Notes under the pieces: model-generated
Seen by the model: only the letters and a program-made list of their open reading frames with translations
Database searches by the model: none
Told to the model about the DNA's origin: nothing
IMG/VR virus record: IMGVR_UViG_2671180432_000009
DNA length: 8,373 nucleotides
Source of the DNA: a virus
Taxonomy: Duplodnaviria > Heunggongvirae > Uroviricota > Caudoviricetes
Direction: 5' to 3' (one strand)
Position numbers and translations under genes: made by a program
Shown: positions 1 through 8,373 of the stretch, in pieces
Position numbering within the stretch: position 1 is the stretch's first letter
How the letters are laid out: each line of letters starts with the position of its first letter

Positions 1-72
1 GGGAAAAATATCATCAGATGGCTGCTTAAAAAAAGAACAAATGGTAGTGTCCGCTATTGCCAGTACACCTCA
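1..72. repeat. Left terminal inverted repeat: 72 bp identical to the reverse complement of 8302..8373
   Basis: Manual reverse-complement of 8302..8373 matches 1..72 exactly; identity ends at position 73 (g versus t). Contains the upstream region and first 10 codons (MVVSAIASTP) of the gene at 8103..8333, here followed by a 21-codon remnant ORF (41..106). Confidence 0.9.
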
Positions 73-734: not shown

Positions 735-1070
735 ATGAAGTGGATTGTGATTGATACAGTTATCCAGCCATCATGCGGAATATCTTTTTCAGTCATATGG
801 AGTAAAATAAAATTAATAATCTGGTATCAATCGGATGCTTTCTTACCTCCTGAAAGTATATTTACACTGACTCACACAGGCATCATGCTCAATAACAAAG
901 TGCTACCTGTAACCATTTACAACGTAGTACCATTCAATAAAACATTCTGGAATTCAATCAAAAATAGCCAGGAATGCCCTACAAATACAGATAACGTATT
1001 GAATGAATGCTTTAATAACCGTTGCACTCTGCAAATATGTCCTTATGGACTAAAACAACAAAGTCCATAA
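735..1070 (+). CDS. Hypothetical protein, 111 aa, in an AT-rich island (possible moron gene)
   Basis: Only ORF over 60 codons in the AT-rich stretch 480..1100, where stop codons are frequent by chance. AAGGA Shine-Dalgarno about 7 nt upstream of ATG 735. 6 of 111 codons are ATA. Five Cys in the C-terminal half. No family recognised. Confidence 0.45.
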
Positions 1071-1722: not shown

Positions 1723-2076
1723 CTACCCCAGATGAGTAATCCGAAGTTCATCCATACCACAGGTCCTGGCTATTCTGTTGTACTCCTGAACAAGAGCAAA
1801 TAATTCTGAATTAGCAACCATGAACTCATCGCAAACCCTCTGTATAGCATCACTATTCAGAATAATAACGTCTCTTCCCGAAAGACGATCAGGAGTACAG
1901 AACAAAACTGTCAAACGGCTGAAGGCCTTTGCTCGTGCTGCATTGACTATATCAATACGCTGCCTAAGGATGAAACACCCCGACGCCTCATCAATATTCA
2001 CTCTACCCACACCATATGAATGATAAATATTTAATGCTGAAAAAACCATTAGACCGTATAACAAACACTCAATCAA
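1723..2076 (-). CDS. Hypothetical protein, 117 aa from TTG 2076 (108 aa if ATG 2049 is the start)
   Basis: Six-frame ORF; first gene after the tRNA-Arg-like gene in the late direction. 3 AGA, 3 AGG and 3 ATA codons in 117. No clear Shine-Dalgarno at either start. No family recognised. Confidence 0.45.
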   Translation of the reverse strand: MIECLLYGLMVFSALNIYHSYGVGRVNIDEASGCFILRQRIDIVNAARAKAFSRLTVLFCTPDRLSGRDVIILNSDAIQRVCDEFMVANSELFALVQEYNRIARTCGMDELRITHLG

Positions 2077-2186
2077 TACTTAACAGAACTTTTATTTTTG
2101 ACAAACATAAAATATTTTCAACAATATCCTGAGCCAGGTATATTTCAGTATAAGGCTCTGCCGGAAGGAATCTGGAAGAATGAATA

Positions 2187-2262
2187 TGGCGCGCTGTACT
2201 GGATTCGAACCAGTGACCGATTGCTTAGAAGGCAATTGCTCTGTCCGGTGAGCTAAAGGGCC
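2187..2262 (-). tRNA. tRNA-Arg(UCU)-like gene, 76 nt; acceptor stem pairs at only 3 of 7 positions (possible pseudo or hybrid tRNA)
   Basis: Minus-strand read GGCCCTT-TA-GCTC-ACCGGACA-GAGC-A-ATTGC-CTTCTAA-GCAAT-CGGTC-ACTGG-TTCGAAT-CCAGT-ACAGCGC-G-CCA. D, anticodon (UCU) and T arms are canonical; 5' GGCCCTT does not pair with 3' ACAGCGC. Confidence 0.6.
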
Positions 2263-2271
2263 GGGAGCAGA

Positions 2272-2300
2272 ATAATAACGGTCCGTAATTAATTCCGCAA
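2272..2300 (-). promoter_or_regulatory. Putative sigma70 promoter for the tRNA-Arg-like gene
   Basis: Minus strand: -35 TTGCGG (2300..2295), 17-nt spacer, -10 TATTAT (2277..2272), about 10 nt upstream of the tRNA 5' end; homologous to the tRNA-Ile upstream region. Confidence 0.35.
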
Positions 2301-2325
2301 TAAAAAACCCGCTCGGCGGCGGGTT
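2300..2325 (-). terminator. Intrinsic terminator (tR'-like), copy 1
   Basis: Minus strand AACCCGC-CGCCGA-GCGGGTT followed by TTTTAT; identical to the copy at 4196..4221. Confidence 0.6.
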
Positions 2326-2372
2326 GTAGAAACTCTTCTAACGTCAGGCATAAAACGCCCATAGTTATGACG

Positions 2373-2400
2373 AATTTACCACAGATTCCGGAAAAATCAA
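2373..2400 (-). promoter_or_regulatory. pR'-like promoter, copy 1
   Basis: Minus strand: -35 TTGATT (2400..2395), 16-nt spacer, TGG-TAAATT extended -10 (2378..2373); identical to the copy just past the Q stop. Confidence 0.4.
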
Positions 2401-2417
2401 CCTAGTTACCTTTTTTA

Positions 2418-2607
2418 NNNNNNNNNNNNNNNNNNNNNNNNNNNNNNNNNNNNNNNNNNNNNNNNNNNNNNNNNNNNNNNNNNNNNNNNNNNNNNNNNNN
2501 NNNNNNNNNNNNNNNNNNNNNNNNNNNNNNNNNNNNNNNNNNNNNNNNNNNNNNNNNNNNNNNNNNNNNNNNNNNNNNNNNNNNNNNNNNNNNNNNNNNN
2601 NNNNNNN
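2418..2607. other. Run of 190 N (unresolved or masked sequence)
   Basis: Directly visible; lies between the repeat copy and the tRNA-Ile 3' end. Confidence 1.
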
Positions 2608-2615
2608 GTTTGTGA

Positions 2616-2691
2616 TGGTGGCCCTTGCTGGATTTGAACCAGCGACCTGGCGATTATGAGTCGCTCGCTCTCACCACTGAGCTAAAGGGCC
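2616..2691 (-). tRNA. tRNA with CAU anticodon, tRNA-Ile2 (lysidine) type
   Basis: Minus-strand read GGCCCTT-TA-GCTC-AGTGGTGA-GAGC-G-AGCGA-CTCATAA-TCGCC-AGGTC-GCTGG-TTCAAAT-CCAGC-AAGGGCC-A-CCA. Acceptor pairs 7 of 7; one A-C mismatch at the top of the anticodon stem. Closely resembles E. coli ileX and phage ileZ as recalled. Confidence 0.85.
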
Positions 2692-2700
2692 GGGAGCCGC

Positions 2701-2729
2701 ATAATAACGACGCGTAATTAATTCTTCAA
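2701..2729 (-). promoter_or_regulatory. Putative sigma70 promoter for tRNA-Ile
   Basis: Minus strand: -35 TTGAAG (2729..2724), 17-nt spacer, -10 TATTAT (2706..2701), 9 nt upstream of the tRNA 5' end. Confidence 0.4.
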
Positions 2730-2731
2730 TA

Positions 2732-3729
2732 TCATCCGTTCTGGCTGACTAAATCCTGTACTTCCCGAACCGTCTGCTCAAAACGTTCAGTCTCCAGCTC
2801 AACGCCAATTGCACGACGCCCGAGCGCCAGTGCCGCTTTCACTGTCGAACCCAACCCCATGAAAAAATCTGCAATCAGGTCACCCGGACGACTGCTAGCG
2901 CTGATTATCTGCTGCAGCATTTCTGCCGGTTTTTCGCACGGATGTTTCCCGGGATAGAACTGCACCGGTTTATGCGTCCACACATCGGTATACGGCACCT
3001 GCACCGTCACGCCAAAATACCGCCGCAGATGTTTATATTCACTCAGCAGCTCCGCATACTGCCGGTTCAGTGAGGTATACGTATCCACCAGCTGGTGGTG
3101 GAGCTTTTCCAGTTCACCACGCCGATGCTTCTCTTCTGCCACCCGGGCAAACAGCGCCTGTAATTTCAGATAATCGCTTTCATTCGGCAACTGCCACTGA
3201 CCGGCACTGAACCAGTGCGACACCATGTTTTTCTTTCCTGTGGCATCTGCAATCTGTTTTGCCGTTATCCCCAGGGCAGCTCGCGCATCACGAAAGTAAN
3301 NNNNNNNNNNNNNNNNNNNNNNNNNNNNNNNNNNNNNNNNNNNNNNNNNNNNNNNNNNNNNNNNNNNNNNNNNNNNNNNNNNNNNNNNNNNNNNNNNNNN
3401 NNNNNNNNNNNNNNNNNNNNNNNNNNNNNNNNNNNNNNNNNNNNNNNNNNNNNNNNNNNNNNNNNNNNNNNNNNNNNNNNNNNNNNNNNNNNNNNNNNNN
3501 NNNNNNNNNNNNGTTTCAGCACCCGCCAGAACTGCGCCAGACACTGGTCCAGCCACTTCAGGTAATCATCGTCGCCCTTCCACTGGTTATCCCAGCCCTC
3601 AGGCTTCACTTTAAAGTACGGCGGGTCCGTGACTATCAGGTCAACAGAATTTTCGGGTAACGACCGGATAAATTCCAGGCAGTCGGCGTTGATTAACTCA
3701 CAACTGGATATTTTTACAGTATTAAGCAT
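2732..3729 (-). CDS. DNA methyltransferase, beta-class N6-adenine (or N4-cytosine) type; middle part lost in the N-run 3300..3512
   Basis: N-terminal segment (3729..3513) has motif IV DPPY (LIVTDPPYF); C-terminal segment (3299..2732) has motif I FxGxG (DFFMGLGST). The order IV then I indicates beta class. The two segments are in different frames if the N-run length is taken literally. Confidence 0.8.
3300..3512. other. Run of 213 N (unresolved or masked sequence) inside the methyltransferase gene
   Basis: Directly visible. Confidence 1.
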
Positions 3730-3821
3730 GGATCATTAAGCCTGTCTCTGATAGGCTCATTCTGCTTTTGCGCAAAGCAGTGGGCCTGAGGTTTGCTTGT
3801 GAACCCAACGCATGAGCAGAT

Positions 3822-3852
3822 GGCTGGTGGGTGCCCCTAACACCCACCAGCC
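3822..3852. promoter_or_regulatory. Perfect 12-bp inverted repeat (GGCTGGTGGGTG / CACCCACCAGCC, 7-nt loop) upstream of the methyltransferase start
   Basis: Seen directly; no U-tract on either strand, so not a classic intrinsic terminator. Candidate operator or RNA structural element about 90 nt upstream of ATG 3729. Confidence 0.5.
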
Positions 3853-3867
3853 GCCCATTTACCACAA

Positions 3868-3893
3868 ATAAAAAAGCCTTCACTGCGGAAGGC
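3868..3893 (-). terminator. Intrinsic terminator overlapping the stop codon of the small HTH gene
   Basis: Minus strand GCCTTC-CGCAGT-GAAGGC followed by TTTTTTATTT; the TGA stop (3882..3880) sits in the loop and stem. Confidence 0.55.
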
Positions 3894-4077
3894 GTCTGTA
3901 ACAACCGAACTGATAGTCTGCCAGACCCGCCATAACCAGCTGGGTCAGTATTAACTGGCAGCGTTCGCGTGAAAGGTAAGTATTCTGCGCTATCTCCCCG
4001 ACTGTCGCCGGTTCGGTAACGCTTAATTCATTAAACACCACTCTGGCGGTTTCTGTCATATCCTGCTGTTTTAGCAT
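3880..4077 (-). CDS. Small DNA-binding protein with a helix-turn-helix-like segment, 65 aa
   Basis: AAGGA Shine-Dalgarno 6-7 nt upstream of ATG 4077; the segment TVGEIAQNTYLSRERCQLILTQLVMAGL resembles an HTH recognition region. Family not recognised. Confidence 0.5.
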   Translation of the reverse strand: MLKQQDMTETARVVFNELSVTEPATVGEIAQNTYLSRERCQLILTQLVMAGLADYQFGCYRRLPQ

Positions 4078-4195
4078 GTCTTTTCCTTTTCCGGTTAACG
4101 TGACACACCAATAACTCTTGTCGAAAAAGCCAGCAAGCTGAAAGACAGGTATTCACCGCCACCAGCGCGTTTACTGTACTGACGCGATTTCAGTC

Positions 4196-4221
4196 ATAAA
4201 AAACCCGCTCGGCGGCGGGTT
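4196..4221 (-). terminator. Intrinsic terminator (tR'-like), copy 2, about 80 nt past the Q stop
   Basis: Minus strand AACCCGC-CGCCGA-GCGGGTT followed by TTTTATG. Confidence 0.6.
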
Positions 4222-4268
4222 GTAGAAACTCTTCTAACGTCAGGCATAAAACGCCCATCGTTATGACG

Positions 4269-4296
4269 AATTTACCACAGATTCCGGAAAAATCAA
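4269..4296 (-). promoter_or_regulatory. Late promoter (pR'-like) immediately downstream of Q, copy 2
   Basis: Minus strand: -35 TTGATT (4296..4291), 16-nt spacer, TGG-TAAATT extended -10 (4274..4269); the predicted transcript to the terminator is about 65 nt, as expected for a short Q-modifiable pR' transcript. Confidence 0.45.
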
Positions 4297-4301
4297 CCTT
4301 G

Positions 4302-5123
4302 TTACCTAGTTACCTTTTTTAACTGCCGCTCAGCCCATGCTTCTTCAATATCAAACCGGGTCACCAGCGCATCATAAAATTTCTTAACTGTTTTTTCCCA
4401 TGACGCGCGTGTTATCTGGTTTGTCACCTCGCATATAGCATTAAATGCCTCCGTTGATGGTAGTCTTTCATAGCCACGACCACCACAACGCTGGCAGTCT
4501 CTGATAACAGGCATACCACGTTTTACCGACTCTTCACGATGAATGGCGACACCACGCCCACGGCAATCCTTACAGGCGGTGGAAACCTCACCCTTTCCGC
4601 CACACTCCGGACAGGCAACTTTTACCACCTCCCTGACTTTTTTCCATTCTTCCCAGTAAGACGGATACACACCTTTCGTACACTTTGCCCATACCGGCGG
4701 CTTACCATCCGGATACTGGACCTTGTTTGTAAAAACTACGCTTTCAATAAATTTTTCCCCATAGCAACAAGGGCACTGCTTTTTACTCGCTGCGCTGCGG
4801 GCATAATCCTCAAAAGCGTACGAAGCCATAATGCGCATCACTACCGGTTTTATTTCTGCCGGAAGTTTTCTCAACGCCGCCACACGATCGCACCGACTGA
4901 GTGCATAATCTGCCAGTAATTCTGTTGCCCGCGCCCTGTCATTCATACTGATGCCCATTTTCCCCAGGAACGCAGAAAACCCCATCTCAGCCCGATTCTG
5001 TGTCATGCCCTGCGCGGCCATCACATCAGTGATACTCAGCGCATCTTTCGACGTTGAGGCCGATGCATCAGTCAGGCCGGGGGATTTTGGGGAGTAGTAT
5101 TTCGGTAAATCTTCCAGTTTCAT
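4302..5123 (-). CDS. Late-gene antiterminator Q-like protein, 273 aa, with four DnaJ-type CxxCxGxG repeats
   Basis: Position is diagnostic: directly downstream of rusA with an ATGA start/stop overlap and directly upstream of the promoter/terminator unit and tRNA genes. Size fits the long Qin-type Q proteins as recalled. Repeats CPCCYGEK, CPECGGKG, CKDCRGRG, CQRCGGRG are visible. Confidence 0.6.
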   Translation of the reverse strand: MKLEDLPKYYSPKSPGLTDASASTSKDALSITDVMAAQGMTQNRAEMGFSAFLGKMGISMNDRARATELLADYALSRCDRVAALRKLPAEIKPVVMRIMASYAFEDYARSAASKKQCPCCYGEKFIESVVFTNKVQYPDGKPPVWAKCTKGVYPSYWEEWKKVREVVKVACPECGGKGEVSTACKDCRGRGVAIHREESVKRGMPVIRDCQRCGGRGYERLPSTEAFNAICEVTNQITRASWEKTVKKFYDALVTRFDIEEAWAERQLKKVTR

Positions 5124-5500
5124 TTTTTGACCTGCCCTTCAAGCATTATGGGATAAATCTTCACCCCCAGACGTCCACCAGATACTGGCTGAGCACGAAC
5201 GATATTGATTTCATCAAACTGCTCATCGTCCATTAGCAACCCCGCATGCGTCAGCGCATCCAGCGGCGCTTTCAGAATATTGTCCAGGTCACGGCGGCGC
5301 TTATCCGGTGGTTCTGCAATAATTTTTATTGCCAACCTTCCGGACAGGCTTAATTTCAGCCGCTGCTGGCGAACAATAAGCGCCACTGCCCGGCGATAAC
5401 GCTCCCCGGCTTTTGATACAAAATATGTGCTGCCACGACGACGCCAGTAAGTGTTCACCGTCGGCGGGTAAGGTAAAACAAATTCTATGCGCTCGGTCAT
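5120..5500 (-). CDS. rusA: Holliday junction resolvase RusA (crossover junction endodeoxyribonuclease)
   Basis: 126 aa; N-terminal PYPPTVNTYWRRRG and catalytic-region RRRDLDNILKAPLDALTHAGLLMDDEQ closely match the RusA family as recalled; typical position upstream of Q. Confidence 0.9.
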   Translation of the reverse strand: MTERIEFVLPYPPTVNTYWRRRGSTYFVSKAGERYRRAVALIVRQQRLKLSLSGRLAIKIIAEPPDKRRRDLDNILKAPLDALTHAGLLMDDEQFDEINIVRAQPVSGGRLGVKIYPIMLEGQVKK

Positions 5501-6559
5501 TTATGCTTTCCACTTCAGAACACCCGAATTTCTCGCGTGCATTAAAAAACGAATCAGCAACAACAGCTGACTGCCGTGTTTCTCTTCAAAATCTTTTACT
5601 CCGGCATGTAGTTCGTTACGGCATTTACGGCATAACGGAATAACAAACAAATCATCAGCCTTTGTTCCCATCCCTCCCAGTCCATGACCAATGATGTGAT
5701 GCGGATCATCTGCCTGATTGCCACACGTCATGCATTTCTGCGTTTTTACCCAGCGCGTGTATACAGGCATCTCTTCCCGTTGTGATTTCTGGCGCTGGAG
5801 ATACTGAGCCGGTGACTCCGGATCAACGGCAATGCTGACCACCGTCTTTTCCTGTGGTGGGTTCTGTTGCTGGTGGACGTGAGGCAGTAACGCAATATTT
5901 TTTGTGCGCTGCTTCAGTATGCTGGTGGCTGTCTGCTCTCCCGGTATGATGTCGCTTTCACTGTACACAGAGCGAATTTTTTCCGCACGCAACCCCAGCG
6001 AACGACGTAATACCGCTTCCGGTAGCGCGTCCGCCACCTGATTGCGGACCGCCCACCAGGATAATTCAGCCAGAGATAATTCACGCTCCTGCGTACCGCT
6101 TATTGCGTGACCGATGACGTCAATCATCCATGCTGACAGGTTTTGATGAGCAAGTTGCTCGAGTGATTCGGATGTCTGGTCACGCAGCTGGTTGTCGCAG
6201 TGCCAGCACAACACCATTGCGCCGGTACCATAACGGTGAATGACGGTTTCGCTGTGATGATAATCGCCGTGTGGCCACTGGCAGGATTTAATATGGCGCA
6301 ACAGCCAGTCAGACAATGCACCAGCACCACCAGCAGCACGAATCACCCGTGCGTTACTGAAAAACGGCAGCAATGTTTTGTCTTCCACCAGCGGCTGGCG
6401 AGCGGCAGGAACGACCCCGGACGGCAGATTACGCATGCTTTTTGGTTCCGGCTCCACCAGTATTCTGCCGTTATGGAATGCTGACATTGATTCACGGCCT
6501 GGCTTAACGATAACCAGACCGAGTTCCGGTACCAGAACAGGTCGAAGTAATACCCGCAC
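5501..6559 (-). CDS. DUF968-like protein (YdfU-like), 352 aa, Cys/His-rich C-terminal motif
   Basis: Size and position match the YdfU family of Qin-like prophages as recalled; C-terminal CMTCGNQADDPHHIIGHG...CRKCRNELH looks like an HNH or zinc-binding motif. GTG start at 6559 after GGAGG; start uncertain. Confidence 0.75.
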   Translation of the reverse strand: MRVLLRPVLVPELGLVIVKPGRESMSAFHNGRILVEPEPKSMRNLPSGVVPAARQPLVEDKTLLPFFSNARVIRAAGGAGALSDWLLRHIKSCQWPHGDYHHSETVIHRYGTGAMVLCWHCDNQLRDQTSESLEQLAHQNLSAWMIDVIGHAISGTQERELSLAELSWWAVRNQVADALPEAVLRRSLGLRAEKIRSVYSESDIIPGEQTATSILKQRTKNIALLPHVHQQQNPPQEKTVVSIAVDPESPAQYLQRQKSQREEMPVYTRWVKTQKCMTCGNQADDPHHIIGHGLGGMGTKADDLFVIPLCRKCRNELHAGVKDFEEKHGSQLLLLIRFLMHARNSGVLKWKA

Positions 6560-6634
6560 ATTACCTCCAGATCCGTTGCTGGAATGTGCGGGACGGACGC
6601 GTTGGCCGTTCGGAGTAAGGGAGCCTGACGGAGA

Positions 6635-6916
6635 TTATCCAGTGACGGTAGTCGAGGCTAAGGGCTTTTTTAACCTCGCATCCGCGCCTGCGGTAACACT
6701 GAATGAGCCATTCGGCCTGTTCTTCAGTGCATGGGGGATGCTGGTACCAATCAGATTTAAATGCGTGAGAGCGCCGCCCGTGCCTGCTGGCAAAGACGGC
6801 TGAATTATCAGAATTGTGTAGTCTGGAAGGCAGTGGCTGACAATAGCGCCATTCTCAACGCGCACAGTATAGAGGCCATCTTCACTAAAAATTTCACGTA
6901 ATTCTTCGATTTTCAT
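6635..6916 (-). CDS. Hypothetical protein, 93 aa
   Basis: GGAAGGA Shine-Dalgarno 8 nt upstream of ATG 6916 (the ORF track begins one codon earlier at TTG 6919); sits between the hok terminator and the DUF968 gene. Confidence 0.5.
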   Translation of the reverse strand: MKIEELREIFSEDGLYTVRVENGAIVSHCLPDYTILIIQPSLPAGTGGALTHLNLIGTSIPHALKNRPNGSFSVTAGADARLKKPLASTTVTG

Positions 6917-7039
6917 CAACAGAATCCTTCCAGATAAATAGCACTCCCCTGTTCGGGGTCCATCCCTCTTCTCCCTGCGCGCTACTTAAGTATTTTTGAT
7001 TCTATTCCGGCACCATCTAAAACTTCAAACGCGTTGAAA

Positions 7040-7068
7040 ATAAAAACAAAAACCCGCCGAAGCGGGTT
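7040..7068 (-). terminator. Intrinsic terminator of the hok/mok transcript
   Basis: Minus strand AACCCGC-TTCG-GCGGGTT followed by TTTTGTTTTTATTTT; about 70 nt past the hok stop. Confidence 0.7.
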
Positions 7069-7136
7069 AAGTGTGGGTGCATTGAGGATGCCTGACCCAT
7101 CAGAGGTGGCGAGGGATTTCTCCCCCGCCTGGTCTC

Positions 7137-7292
7137 TTACTCCTCAGGTTCGTAAGCTGTGAAGACAGCGACCTCCGTCTGGCCGGTTCGAATTCGTACC
7201 TCGCAGAGGTCTTTCCTCGTTACCAGTGCCGTCACTATGACGGTTAAACAGATGACGATCAGGGCGATTAACATCGCCTTTTGCTGCTTCAT
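7137..7292 (-). CDS. hok: Hok/Gef-family type I toxin, 51 aa
   Basis: MKQQKAMLIALIVICLTVIVTALVTRKDLCEVRIRTGQTEVAVFTAYEPEE closely matches the Hok/Gef family (HokD/RelF-like as recalled); AGGAG Shine-Dalgarno upstream. Confidence 0.85.
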   Translation of the reverse strand: MKQQKAMLIALIVICLTVIVTALVTRKDLCEVRIRTGQTEVAVFTAYEPEE

Positions 7293-7349
7293 AGCCTGCT
7301 TCTCCTTGCCTTTCGGCACGTAAGAGGCTAACCTAGATTTGCCGTTCAT
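7137..7349 (-). CDS. mok: Mok-like in-frame N-terminally extended reading frame (70 aa) overlapping hok
   Basis: ORF starts 19 codons upstream of hok in the same frame, as in chromosomal mokC/hokC loci as recalled. Confidence 0.55.
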   Translation of the reverse strand: MNGKSRLASYVPKGKEKQAMKQQKAMLIALIVICLTVIVTALVTRKDLCEVRIRTGQTEVAVFTAYEPEE

Positions 7350-7400
7350 AGATTGAGCCTCAGATTAATGTTAAGCGTCTTGCCGGACGCGTAATGTTAA
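7295..7400 (+). ncRNA. Expected position of a Sok-like antisense RNA opposite the mok translation-initiation region (boundaries not resolved)
   Basis: Inference from hok/sok architecture only; a weak plus-strand hairpin GCGTC-TTGCCG-GACGC lies at about 7364..7379. No promoter identified with confidence. Confidence 0.25.
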
Positions 7401-7468
7401 CTGGGGCTTTTCTCTATCTGCCTTTTGGTGTTCATGCCTGAGACAGATAGCCTCAAGCACCCGCTGCA

Positions 7469-7496
7469 ATTCTACTTAACTCTCCTTTTCCCGCAA
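7469..7496 (-). promoter_or_regulatory. Putative promoter of the hok/mok mRNA
   Basis: Minus strand: -35 TTGCGG (7496..7491), 16-nt spacer, -10 TAGAAT (7474..7469), upstream of a leader beginning GCTTGAGGCTATCTGTCTCAGGC that resembles hok mRNA 5' ends as recalled. Confidence 0.35.
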
Positions 7497-7503
7497 ACCG
7501 TTT

Positions 7504-7587
7504 TTATCCCCAGCGGCAAATCGAATACACCACCAGCGCCACCGCCATCGCAATTCCTACCGTTGTTAATGCTTCAGGCCAGGTCAT
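7504..7587 (-). CDS. Putative 27-aa hydrophobic peptide ([27 protein letters not shown])
   Basis: Absent from the ORF track (under 60 aa). ATG 7587 overlaps the TGA of the upstream gene (ATGA); GGAGGA Shine-Dalgarno 9 nt upstream; single predicted transmembrane-like segment. Confidence 0.3.
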
Positions 7588-7928
7588 CGTAAAATATCCT
7601 CCACGCTTATCAGTCCGTTCCGCTCCAGATAACTCATCGCCTTATCCGGTAATTTGCAGTCTGGCTTCGCTTTCCTCAGTTGCCAGGTTAACTGCTTTAC
7701 CAGCATGGTTAACTCATCGACCAGACGCTGATATCCCACTGGTTTGTATTCATGCAATTTACCGGCTGGCTCTGCTGCCAGCGATACCAGTGCGATTTCC
7801 AGAACAGCAATATCCATCTTATATGTGCGGATGATGTCATGGTCGATTGTGCCCGGTATGCACAGTCTCTGTGCTTCAATAGTCTCCTCTGCGTGAGCTA
7901 TTAACTGCTCTCTGGTAAAAGTCGTCAT
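7584..7928 (-). CDS. Hypothetical protein, 114 aa
   Basis: Six-frame ORF; start overlaps the stop of the upstream 55-aa ORF (ATGA); shares an N-terminal MTTxT motif and an IAL-SL-AEP motif with that ORF. Confidence 0.6.
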
Positions 7929-8092
7929 GCCGTAGCCCCTTCTTGATATTTTTCAAACCAGAACACAACCGGCTCTGCTTCCAGCGATGCCAGCGCAATC
8001 CGTGCCAGTTCCATTTGTTCACCACGGGTAAGCCCGTTTTCAAGCGGGTTTTTAATGAACAATTCAATACGTTCTTTGGTAATAGTGGTCAT
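7925..8092 (-). CDS. Hypothetical protein, 55 aa ([55 protein letters not shown])
   Basis: Absent from the ORF track; strong AAGGAG Shine-Dalgarno 6 nt upstream of ATG 8092; stop overlaps the next start. Preferred over the 63-aa ORF at 7876..8067, which is in another frame. Confidence 0.5.
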
Positions 8093-8102
8093 GTGTTACT
8101 CC

Positions 8103-8333
8103 TTAACCCGCAGTGCTTTCAACTGATGAGGGGAACAAAATCTTTTCATCAAACCCTGCATTCATATCATGAACAGCAACACACCAATCCATCGACGAAC
8201 GATTATCAAGAGCCTCCATGATTTCATCCATGCGGCGTAGGTCATACAGGTAAATGCTTTTATCGCCAATGGTGTAAAAGCCAATTTTTTTCGGTGATGG
8301 ATGAGGTGTACTGGCAATAGCGGACACTACCAT
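8103..8333 (-). CDS. Hypothetical protein, 76 aa
   Basis: Six-frame ORF; first gene of the coupled block; its first 10 codons and upstream region lie in the right inverted repeat. Weak Shine-Dalgarno. Confidence 0.5.
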   Translation of the reverse strand: MVVSAIASTPHPSPKKIGFYTIGDKSIYLYDLRRMDEIMEALDNRSSMDWCVAVHDMNAGFDEKILFPSSVESTAG

Positions 8334-8373
8334 TTGTTCTTTTTTTAAGCAGCCATCTGATGATATTTTTCCC
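8302..8373. repeat. Right terminal inverted repeat (partner of 1..72)
   Basis: See 1..72. Confidence 0.9.

Follow-up and report, generated by a model that had tools for sequence, protein, structure and literature searches.

An ileZ::argO tRNA chimera in a lambdoid-prophage tRNA cluster, very likely a pseudogene left by a recent 177-nt deletion

The closest described relative of the gene presented here is argO of the ileZ-argN-argO tRNA cluster, which lies downstream of gene Q in Stx-converting and other lambdoid prophages. The cluster is intact in Stx2a_WGPS8, and non-Stx relatives hold a 100-nt spacer in the place of argN; argO, as the last tRNA, comes after either argN or its remnant and has the DUF3927/STnc100 region or stx behind it. 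The names ileZ, argN and argO follow GenBank annotation (AP012540.1, AM072972.1). Our survey of argO comprised 151 copies out of 162 loci. In the intact gene the 5' acceptor strand GCGUUGU pairs with ACAGCGC at 7/7 positions, one of them G·U; such a stem is present in 142 copies, two have 6/7 pairs, and seven are truncated after the anticodon loop. In one allele of nine copies (viral contigs among L043-L122 and further loci) the T stem ACTGG/CCAGT has become AGTGG/CCACT, accompanied by a change in the T loop. We regard this compensated change as evidence for structural selection on the intact gene. Taken together with the 142 fully paired copies it indicates that intact argO is structurally constrained, a constraint which the gene described below violates.

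The argU gene of Escherichia coli and Shigella has the same anticodon as argO and likewise decodes AGA, but is a separate gene with a fully paired acceptor stem. Exchange between tandem tRNA genes is also familiar: in the tyrT/tyrV pair of E. coli unequal crossing-over between near-identical isoacceptors gives rise to functional recombinants, and the conserved D-arm and T-arm boxes of neighbouring tRNA genes are usable as points of recombination or slippage. Unlike tyrT and tyrV, the two partners of the present chimera differ in amino acid, share only 8-9 nt and give a mismatched stem.

The window analyzed, that is, the whole stretch of 8,373 nt, belongs to a tailed phage genome of the Caudoviricetes (IMG/VR record IMGVR_UViG_2671180432_000009). 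In minus-strand order it carries DUF968, RusA, Q (identified through Pfam PF03589 on an identical protein), a 119-nt module, a 65-aa ORF, a DNA methyltransferase and ileZ, after which come an N run, a second copy of the module, an ileZ-type leader and the chimeric gene (Table 1). The repeated module contains the last bases of Q, late-promoter-like hexamers (TTGATT...TAAATT) and an intrinsic terminator; the minus strand has two terminator-like stem-loops, 2325..2306 with a T run after it and 4221..4202. Two Q-downstream modules arranged as they are in the window occur in no other genome examined. Rfam matches to “Trp_leader” at 2299-2405 (-) and 4195-4301 (-) lie below the gathering score and look like chance or terminator look-alikes. 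The hexamers in the leader of the chimera reach 8/12 by hand count, the cut-off of the promoter scan being 9, and we consider them a putative promoter; the scan does list the homologous leader of the intact ileZ (TTGAAG-17-TATTAT, 2729..2701). ARAGORN labels the latter gene “Met”(cat), and relatives carry an ileZ or tRNA-Ile annotation at this position (AP012540.1, RefSeq E. coli genomes). A “Plastid-ycf2” Rfam match at 2618-2691 (+), below the gathering score, is read as an antisense or chance look-alike of ileZ.

Table 1. Features of the tRNA region of the window
Feature	Position	Strand	Basis or remarks
Chimeric tRNA-Arg(UCU)-like gene	2187..2262	minus	ARAGORN, Rfam RF00005; 76 nt including encoded CCA
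ileZ-derived part, tRNA nt 1-14 = GGCCCTTTAGCTCA	2249..2262	minus	identical to ileZ nt 1-14 at 2691..2678 and in L001/L005/L011
argO-derived part, argO nt 16-77 (CCGGACAGAGC...ACAGCGCGCCA)	2187..2248	minus	alignment to L005/L011
ileZ-type leader with promoter-like hexamers	2263..2300	minus	TTGCGG (2300..2295), 17 nt, TATTAT (2277..2272), 9 nt to the tRNA 5' end
Second Q-end/late-promoter-like/terminator module (direct repeat D1)	2293..2411	minus	119 nt, 96% identical to 4189-4307
N run where the imported Q-end segment meets the resident ileZ cluster	2418..2607		190 N
Intact ileZ (tRNA-Ile2, anticodon CAT)	2616..2691	minus	ARAGORN; Rfam 72.5 bits
Resident Q-end/late-promoter-like/terminator module	4189..4307	minus	directly after gene Q (5123..4302)

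Read from 5' to 3', the chimera is GGCCCUU UA GCUC ACCGGACA GAGC A AUUGC CUUCUAA GCAAU CGGUC ACUGG UUCGAAU CCAGU ACAGCGC G CCA. An earlier note, made from the letters alone, had described it as a tRNA-Arg(UCU)-like gene with sound D, anticodon and T arms, and in this it was right. The ARAGORN run which that note had proposed reports tRNA-Arg(tct) at 2187..2261 on the minus strand, the anticodon TCT lies within the loop CTTCTAA, and the D stem (GCUC/GAGC), anticodon stem (AUUGC/GCAAU) and T stem (ACUGG/CCAGU) consist of standard pairs throughout (14/14). The D loop has its GG (G18G19), the T loop is TTCGAAT, and the encoded CCA occupies 2189-2187. The 5' end was placed at 2262 in the earlier note and is placed at 2261 by ARAGORN. 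All four of the known ArgRS identity elements of E. coli (A20, C35, U36 and G73) are retained.

Searches of phages and E. coli split the region at approximately 2249-2256. At lower coordinates the matches are to argO from Stx and other lambdoid prophages; at higher coordinates they are to the end of gene Q and to what lies upstream of ileZ. In the gene, therefore, nt 1-14 of ileZ run on into nt 16-77 of argO, with the joint at the common box TTAGCTCA(G), and the ileZ-derived part brings a foreign 5' acceptor strand together with the box itself (2256..2249). An alignment to argO of Stx phages, suggested in the earlier note, gave 96% identity of the argO-derived part to the copy in Stx2a_WGPS8; identity to the non-Stx prophage allele is approximately 99%. 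With argO the chimera shares the anticodon, the T arm, ACAGCGC, G73 and CCA, but where argO has its own 5' strand GCGTTGT the chimera has the GGCCCTT of ileZ, and G15 is absent. Identity to argO as a whole gene, GCGTTGT included, does not hold: nt 16-77 match and nt 1-15 are replaced or lost. With ileZ (tRNA-Ile2, anticodon CAU) it has the leader and nt 1-14 in common, while from nt 15 onward, including the anticodon, it is argO. Downstream of the chimera the sequence is colinear with L005 and L011, E. coli prophages of one type; on the upstream side the chimera directly follows an ileZ leader instead of argN or its remnant.

The order Q – terminator – leader – ileZ – 100-nt spacer – argO is found in mEp460_ev081 (L001), L005 and L011, with ileZ and argO 176 nt apart from start to start. 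On the two sides of the junction the window agrees with L005 and L011 at 160/163 and 247/249 positions, the second of these figures referring to 2248..2000 (the argO part, from argO nt 16, plus 187 nt downstream). Between both flanks L005 and L011 have exactly 177 nt which are absent from the window. Since the two halves match their parents at 98–99%, a chance resemblance is excluded. The sequence TTAGCTCAG stands at nt 7-15 of both ileZ and argO; the junction retains TTAGCTCA without the final G. Three marks of a deletion-born pseudogene are present, namely parents which are adjacent in relatives with a defined gap between them, a joint at a short shared repeat, and an allele not conserved in the other genomes searched (see below). 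A clean deletion between the repeats would remove 176 nt and the window is without 177, so that G15 of argO was lost too. This loss is unaccounted for by a simple repeat-mediated deletion; G15 may have gone either in the same imprecise event or later, and any order of the two mutational steps behind the 177-nt loss (G15 included) is one that we infer.

The earlier note had offered two readings, a hybrid formed by recombination between tandem tRNA genes or a decaying tRNA, and by the alignment to L001, L005 and L011 both hold. It had also remarked on the homology to the neighbouring tRNA-Ile, at about 85% over 50 nt and identical for 19 nt. The first figure stands (we measured 86% for the 50 nt up to and including tRNA nt 14, and 63% in the remainder of the tRNA) but the identical run is 20 nt. 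To judge by sequence, though, the ileZ part comes from a copy of the mEp460/L005 type directly upstream of argO and not from the ileZ visible at 2616-2691. The latter is rejected as donor because its leader is only about 86% identical, whereas 2263-2299 is identical to the mEp460/L005 type.

A canonical bacterial elongator tRNA has a seven-pair acceptor stem (nt 1-7 with 66-72), and this the chimera lacks. In the register of the earlier note GGCCCUU faces ACAGCGC with 3/7 pairs (G1-C72, C4-G69 and U7-A66), a count which we repeated and found correct. ARAGORN and Infernal set the 5' end one base later, giving 5/7 pairs with C·C and U·C mismatches (G-C, C-G, C·C, C-G, U-A, U·C, U-A), at the cost of a single connector base rather than the two (U8-A9), or else of a bulged C67. 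A two-base connector and a purine-15/pyrimidine-48 tertiary pair also belong to the canonical form; here G15 is gone and the shifted register leaves one connector base. A complete acceptor stem with other boundaries, the finding which the earlier note had set against its own claim, is ruled out by ARAGORN, Infernal and the energies of four registers, the best having 5/7 pairs; nor did inspection by eye reveal an upstream GCGCUGU or a downstream AAGGGCC around the gene.

Covariance scores and predicted energies reflect the same defect. Against Rfam RF00005 the chimera scores 46.5 bits (Infernal, 2190..2261), which is above the gathering threshold of 29 bits; in the comparison proposed in the earlier note the neighbouring ileZ scores 72.5 bits. 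Intact argO copies score 68-70.1 bits, so that the chimera is 21.5-23.6 bits under them. The predicted cloverleaf of intact argO has an energy of -22.0 kcal/mol, to which the acceptor stem contributes -9.2. For the chimera the core alone gives -13.7 kcal/mol and the best acceptor register, with four pairs, -14.7 in total, a gain of at most -1.0 kcal/mol from the stem. The five-pair registers (-13.0 and -11.7 kcal/mol) are weaker than the core without a stem, and the register of the earlier note yields -8.4 kcal/mol. Relative to shuffled sequences, the MFE z-score is -0.37 for the chimera, -1.56 and -2.02 for argO, and -4.03 for ileZ. In the predicted ensemble of the chimera nt 1-3 (GGC) are paired with G73-C74-C75 (p = 0.94-0.95), and the CCA end would consequently be buried.

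The surroundings of the gene are a mosaic. For positions 1-253 and 2611-8373 the counterpart, at 99.4-100% identity, is a Shigella sonnei prophage remnant flanked by IS elements (L026, L030 and L033-L042), in which the methyltransferase is followed by an Stx-type ileZ-argN-argO. Positions 471-2417, in contrast, are colinear at 98–99% with the L011/L005-type E. coli prophage, in which the order is Q end, terminator, ileZ, argO, DUF3927, STnc100 and IraM. It is this combination of an S. sonnei-type backbone and an E. coli-type segment which leads us to call the window a mosaic, and both of its outer joints lie under N runs (254-470 and 2418-2607). There are four N runs in all, the others being at 1374-1609 and 3300-3512. 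Two of the four are comparable with relatives and are at variance with them in length, in that 236 N correspond to 31 nt in seven relatives and 213 N to 274 nt in all relatives; a true length of 213 nt would break the reading frame of the methyltransferase gene. As these two lengths contradict the relatives, we conclude nothing from the 190 N of Table 1 as to hidden content. The ends of the window (1-72 and 8302-8373) are exact 72-nt inverted repeats; relatives have a matching sequence at the inner end of each of two IS3-family copies.

The junction, for which GGCCCUUUAGCUCACCGGACAGAGC may serve as a probe, appears to be singular. A 25-mer spanning it, together with a relaxed version allowing the G or an A/G variant, had no exact match in 185,579 species genomes, IMG/VR and the JGI metagenomes, while as a control the intact argO 5' end matched at least 120 viral contigs. 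A 96-nt query over the junction was matched in one piece by none of 5,426 complete E. coli genomes, although the two halves are present apart, each in its own gene, in at least 1,629. BLAST with shorter and longer queries, run on phages as well as on complete E. coli genomes, returned only two-piece matches to intact clusters. The chimera is absent from the 162 fetched loci, and none of the S. sonnei backbone loci obtained through exact-protein look-ups of Q, hyp65 (the 65-aa ORF), RusA and DUF968 has either it or the imported segment. Two hybrids of comparable make at this box, argN::argO and ileZ::argN, had no match in viral contigs. From the absence of matches in all of these searches we take the event to be singular, neither recurrent nor a conserved form.

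We think it very likely that a recent inactivating deletion of 177 nt within a lambdoid-prophage tRNA cluster produced this ileZ::argO tRNA pseudogene. The ancestral order would have been the one common in E. coli prophages, that is, Q – late promoter/terminator – short leader – ileZ – decayed argN – argO. The deletion would have taken out ileZ nt 15-76, the spacer and argO nt 1-15, the joint forming at the D-arm box TTAGCTCA(G) common to both genes. From argO the gene retains the D stem, the anticodon arm with UCU, the variable loop and the T arm, as well as the 3' acceptor strand with the discriminator G73 and the CCA; its 5' acceptor strand is from ileZ and is mismatched to the argO 3' strand. 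The G15-C48 tertiary pair would have been lost as well. A different origin of an equally dead gene would be the insertion, or template-switched copying, of a piece made up of the Q 3' end, terminator, leader and ileZ nt 1-14 after nt 15 of a resident argO. In that case argO nt 1-15 would have been left under the N run, and GCGTTGTTAGCTCAG would be expected directly before the Q-end sequence. Such an insertion would explain the “missing” G without a second event, and the window does hold a second Q-end/terminator module. The CACAAAC (2614..2608) just past the resident ileZ is already of the decayed-argN type, and the arrangement MTase – ileZ – ... – Q-end – terminator – chimera is found in no other genome, so that the joints could share one event. 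Against this, two illegitimate ends are required, the joint concerned lies under the N run (2418-2607) where run lengths are unreliable, and a single donor type, from which the window differs here by exactly 177 absent nt, accounts in full for a simple deletion. The deletion is thus the simpler account, and we consider the insertion unlikely. It is very improbable that the junction arose only in sequencing, assembly or consensus calling and that the true genome has an intact ileZ – spacer – argO, even though the junction is unique across all of the collections searched, the window resembles a whole short-read contig ending in the 72-nt IS repeats, the mosaic of two prophage types has its outer joints under N, and the extra loss of one G is odd. 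A mis-join in the assembly graph would not be expected with only 8-9 nt in common at the junction, far under assembler k-mers; both flanks are 98–99% identical to, and colinear with, a single donor type, and deletions and truncations of these tRNA genes occur in finished genomes of relatives.

One might also suppose that the gene still works as a weakened tRNA-Arg(UCU), with RNase P cutting between 2262 and 2261 and the product being charged by ArgRS and decoding AGA for the prophage genes. As ArgRS reads mainly A20 and the anticodon, it would on this supposition still charge the RNA, and the bases A20, C35, U36 and G73 are indeed kept. The shifted register with 5/7 pairs is preferred by ARAGORN and Infernal, the Rfam score exceeds the gathering threshold, the D, anticodon and T arms are intact, and AGA and AGG make up about 30-40% of the Arg codons in Q and some small ORFs. 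Nevertheless the stem gains at most -1.0 kcal/mol as against -9.2 in argO, the five-pair forms fall below the stability reached with no stem at all, and the gene must make do with one connector base instead of U8-A9, or a bulged C67, and without G15. Moreover, 142 of the 144 full-length argO copies retain 7/7 pairs, and the allele was found in no other collection searched, which gives no sign of maintenance. A weakened but working tRNA is for these reasons distinctly improbable in our opinion. Still more far-fetched is a living chimera which would be highly transcribed from the ileZ leader at induction. It would then either mature in the shifted register to a tRNA-Arg(UCU) of low efficiency or act as a stable decoy resembling a tRNA, directed, for example, at anticodon nucleases or other tRNA-targeting defence or toxin systems which recognize the argO anticodon arm. 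No result speaks for such a role, and what leaves room for it is the intactness of the three arms and of the ArgRS identity bases.

The deletion pseudogene is probably transcribed, both from the putative promoter in its leader and by polymerases which started at the late promoter and read through. The acceptor/T-arm stack is required by RNase P, for CCA maintenance, by ArgRS and by EF-Tu, and U8 and the R15-Y48 tertiary pair have established tertiary roles in tRNA. With no such stack and with G15-C48 lost, the RNA would be poorly processed, uncharged and degraded; efficient maturation or charging is not what the predicted fold leads one to expect. The host presumably carries its own argU, the chromosomal tRNA-Arg(UCU) gene, and the loss of the prophage argO would then be tolerable. 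As the prophage is a defective, IS-flanked remnant in such a host, nothing would select for repair of the gene.

Relatives have lost tRNA genes of the same cluster in other ways. The decayed argN is the 100-nt spacer (L001 3165-3264; also L004, L011, L021 and L022; seen in JJ1886 among others); it retains the ends of the gene (CCGCCATTAGCT... and ...GATGGCGGTCCA) and is recognized by neither ARAGORN nor Rfam. Its first 8 nt are present in the window at 2608-2615. In L015 and L016 (about 5621-5662), as in seven viral-contig copies, argO breaks off immediately behind the anticodon loop and continues into unrelated sequence. The S. sonnei strain 866 genome (CP022672.1; PMC6128377) has an IS of about 1.3 kb inside the T arm of argN (L041, about 10077-11412). 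The argN remnants, truncated argO and IS-split argN share locus and outcome with the chimera, that is, the loss of prophage tRNAs in non-Stx or defective prophages; whereas these arose by point decay, truncation and IS insertion, the chimera is a fusion of two genes which still looks like a tRNA to gene finders. Loci L006 and L012 (4966-5275) have an identical Q protein and leader followed by ileZ, Lys-UUU, Thr-UGU and Gly-UCC, and this different set after the same Q and leader suggests that the tRNA cassette is exchangeable between otherwise similar prophages.

The chimera is accordingly a new allele from a known kind of event and of little biological weight. It adds one route to those by which lambdoid prophages lose their accessory tRNA cluster after becoming defective, with AGA served by the argU of the host. 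It illustrates how a conserved D-arm box, present in two different tRNA genes, can become the joint of a deletion, and with its unique junction it cleanly marks the lineage of the strain or prophage in which it occurs. Since ARAGORN, Rfam/Infernal and probably annotation pipelines call the gene a normal tRNA-Arg, tRNA counts and arguments about codon supply would be overstated for this element.

The earlier note had attached importance to the gene on the grounds that adjacent ORFs are rich in AGA and AGG. This is partly so: these codons account for 6/21 of the Arg codons in Q, 2/5 in hyp65 and 6/11 in the doubtful orf117 (117 aa), but for 0/15 in the visible part of the methyltransferase and 0/1 in IraM. 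The AGA/AGG usage of nearby ORFs does not bear on whether the chimera works. Elsewhere on the minus strand of the window there are strong Rfam matches to two small RNAs, STnc100 at 1096-1285 (133.6 bits) and the sok antisense RNA at 7287-7462 (112.4 bits), the latter adjoining a hok-like ORF (7137..7349). In the IraM-like (PmrD-family) ORF at 735-1070 (+) ATA provides 6/13 of the Ile codons and there is a single Arg codon, a composition which fits ileZ rather than argO.
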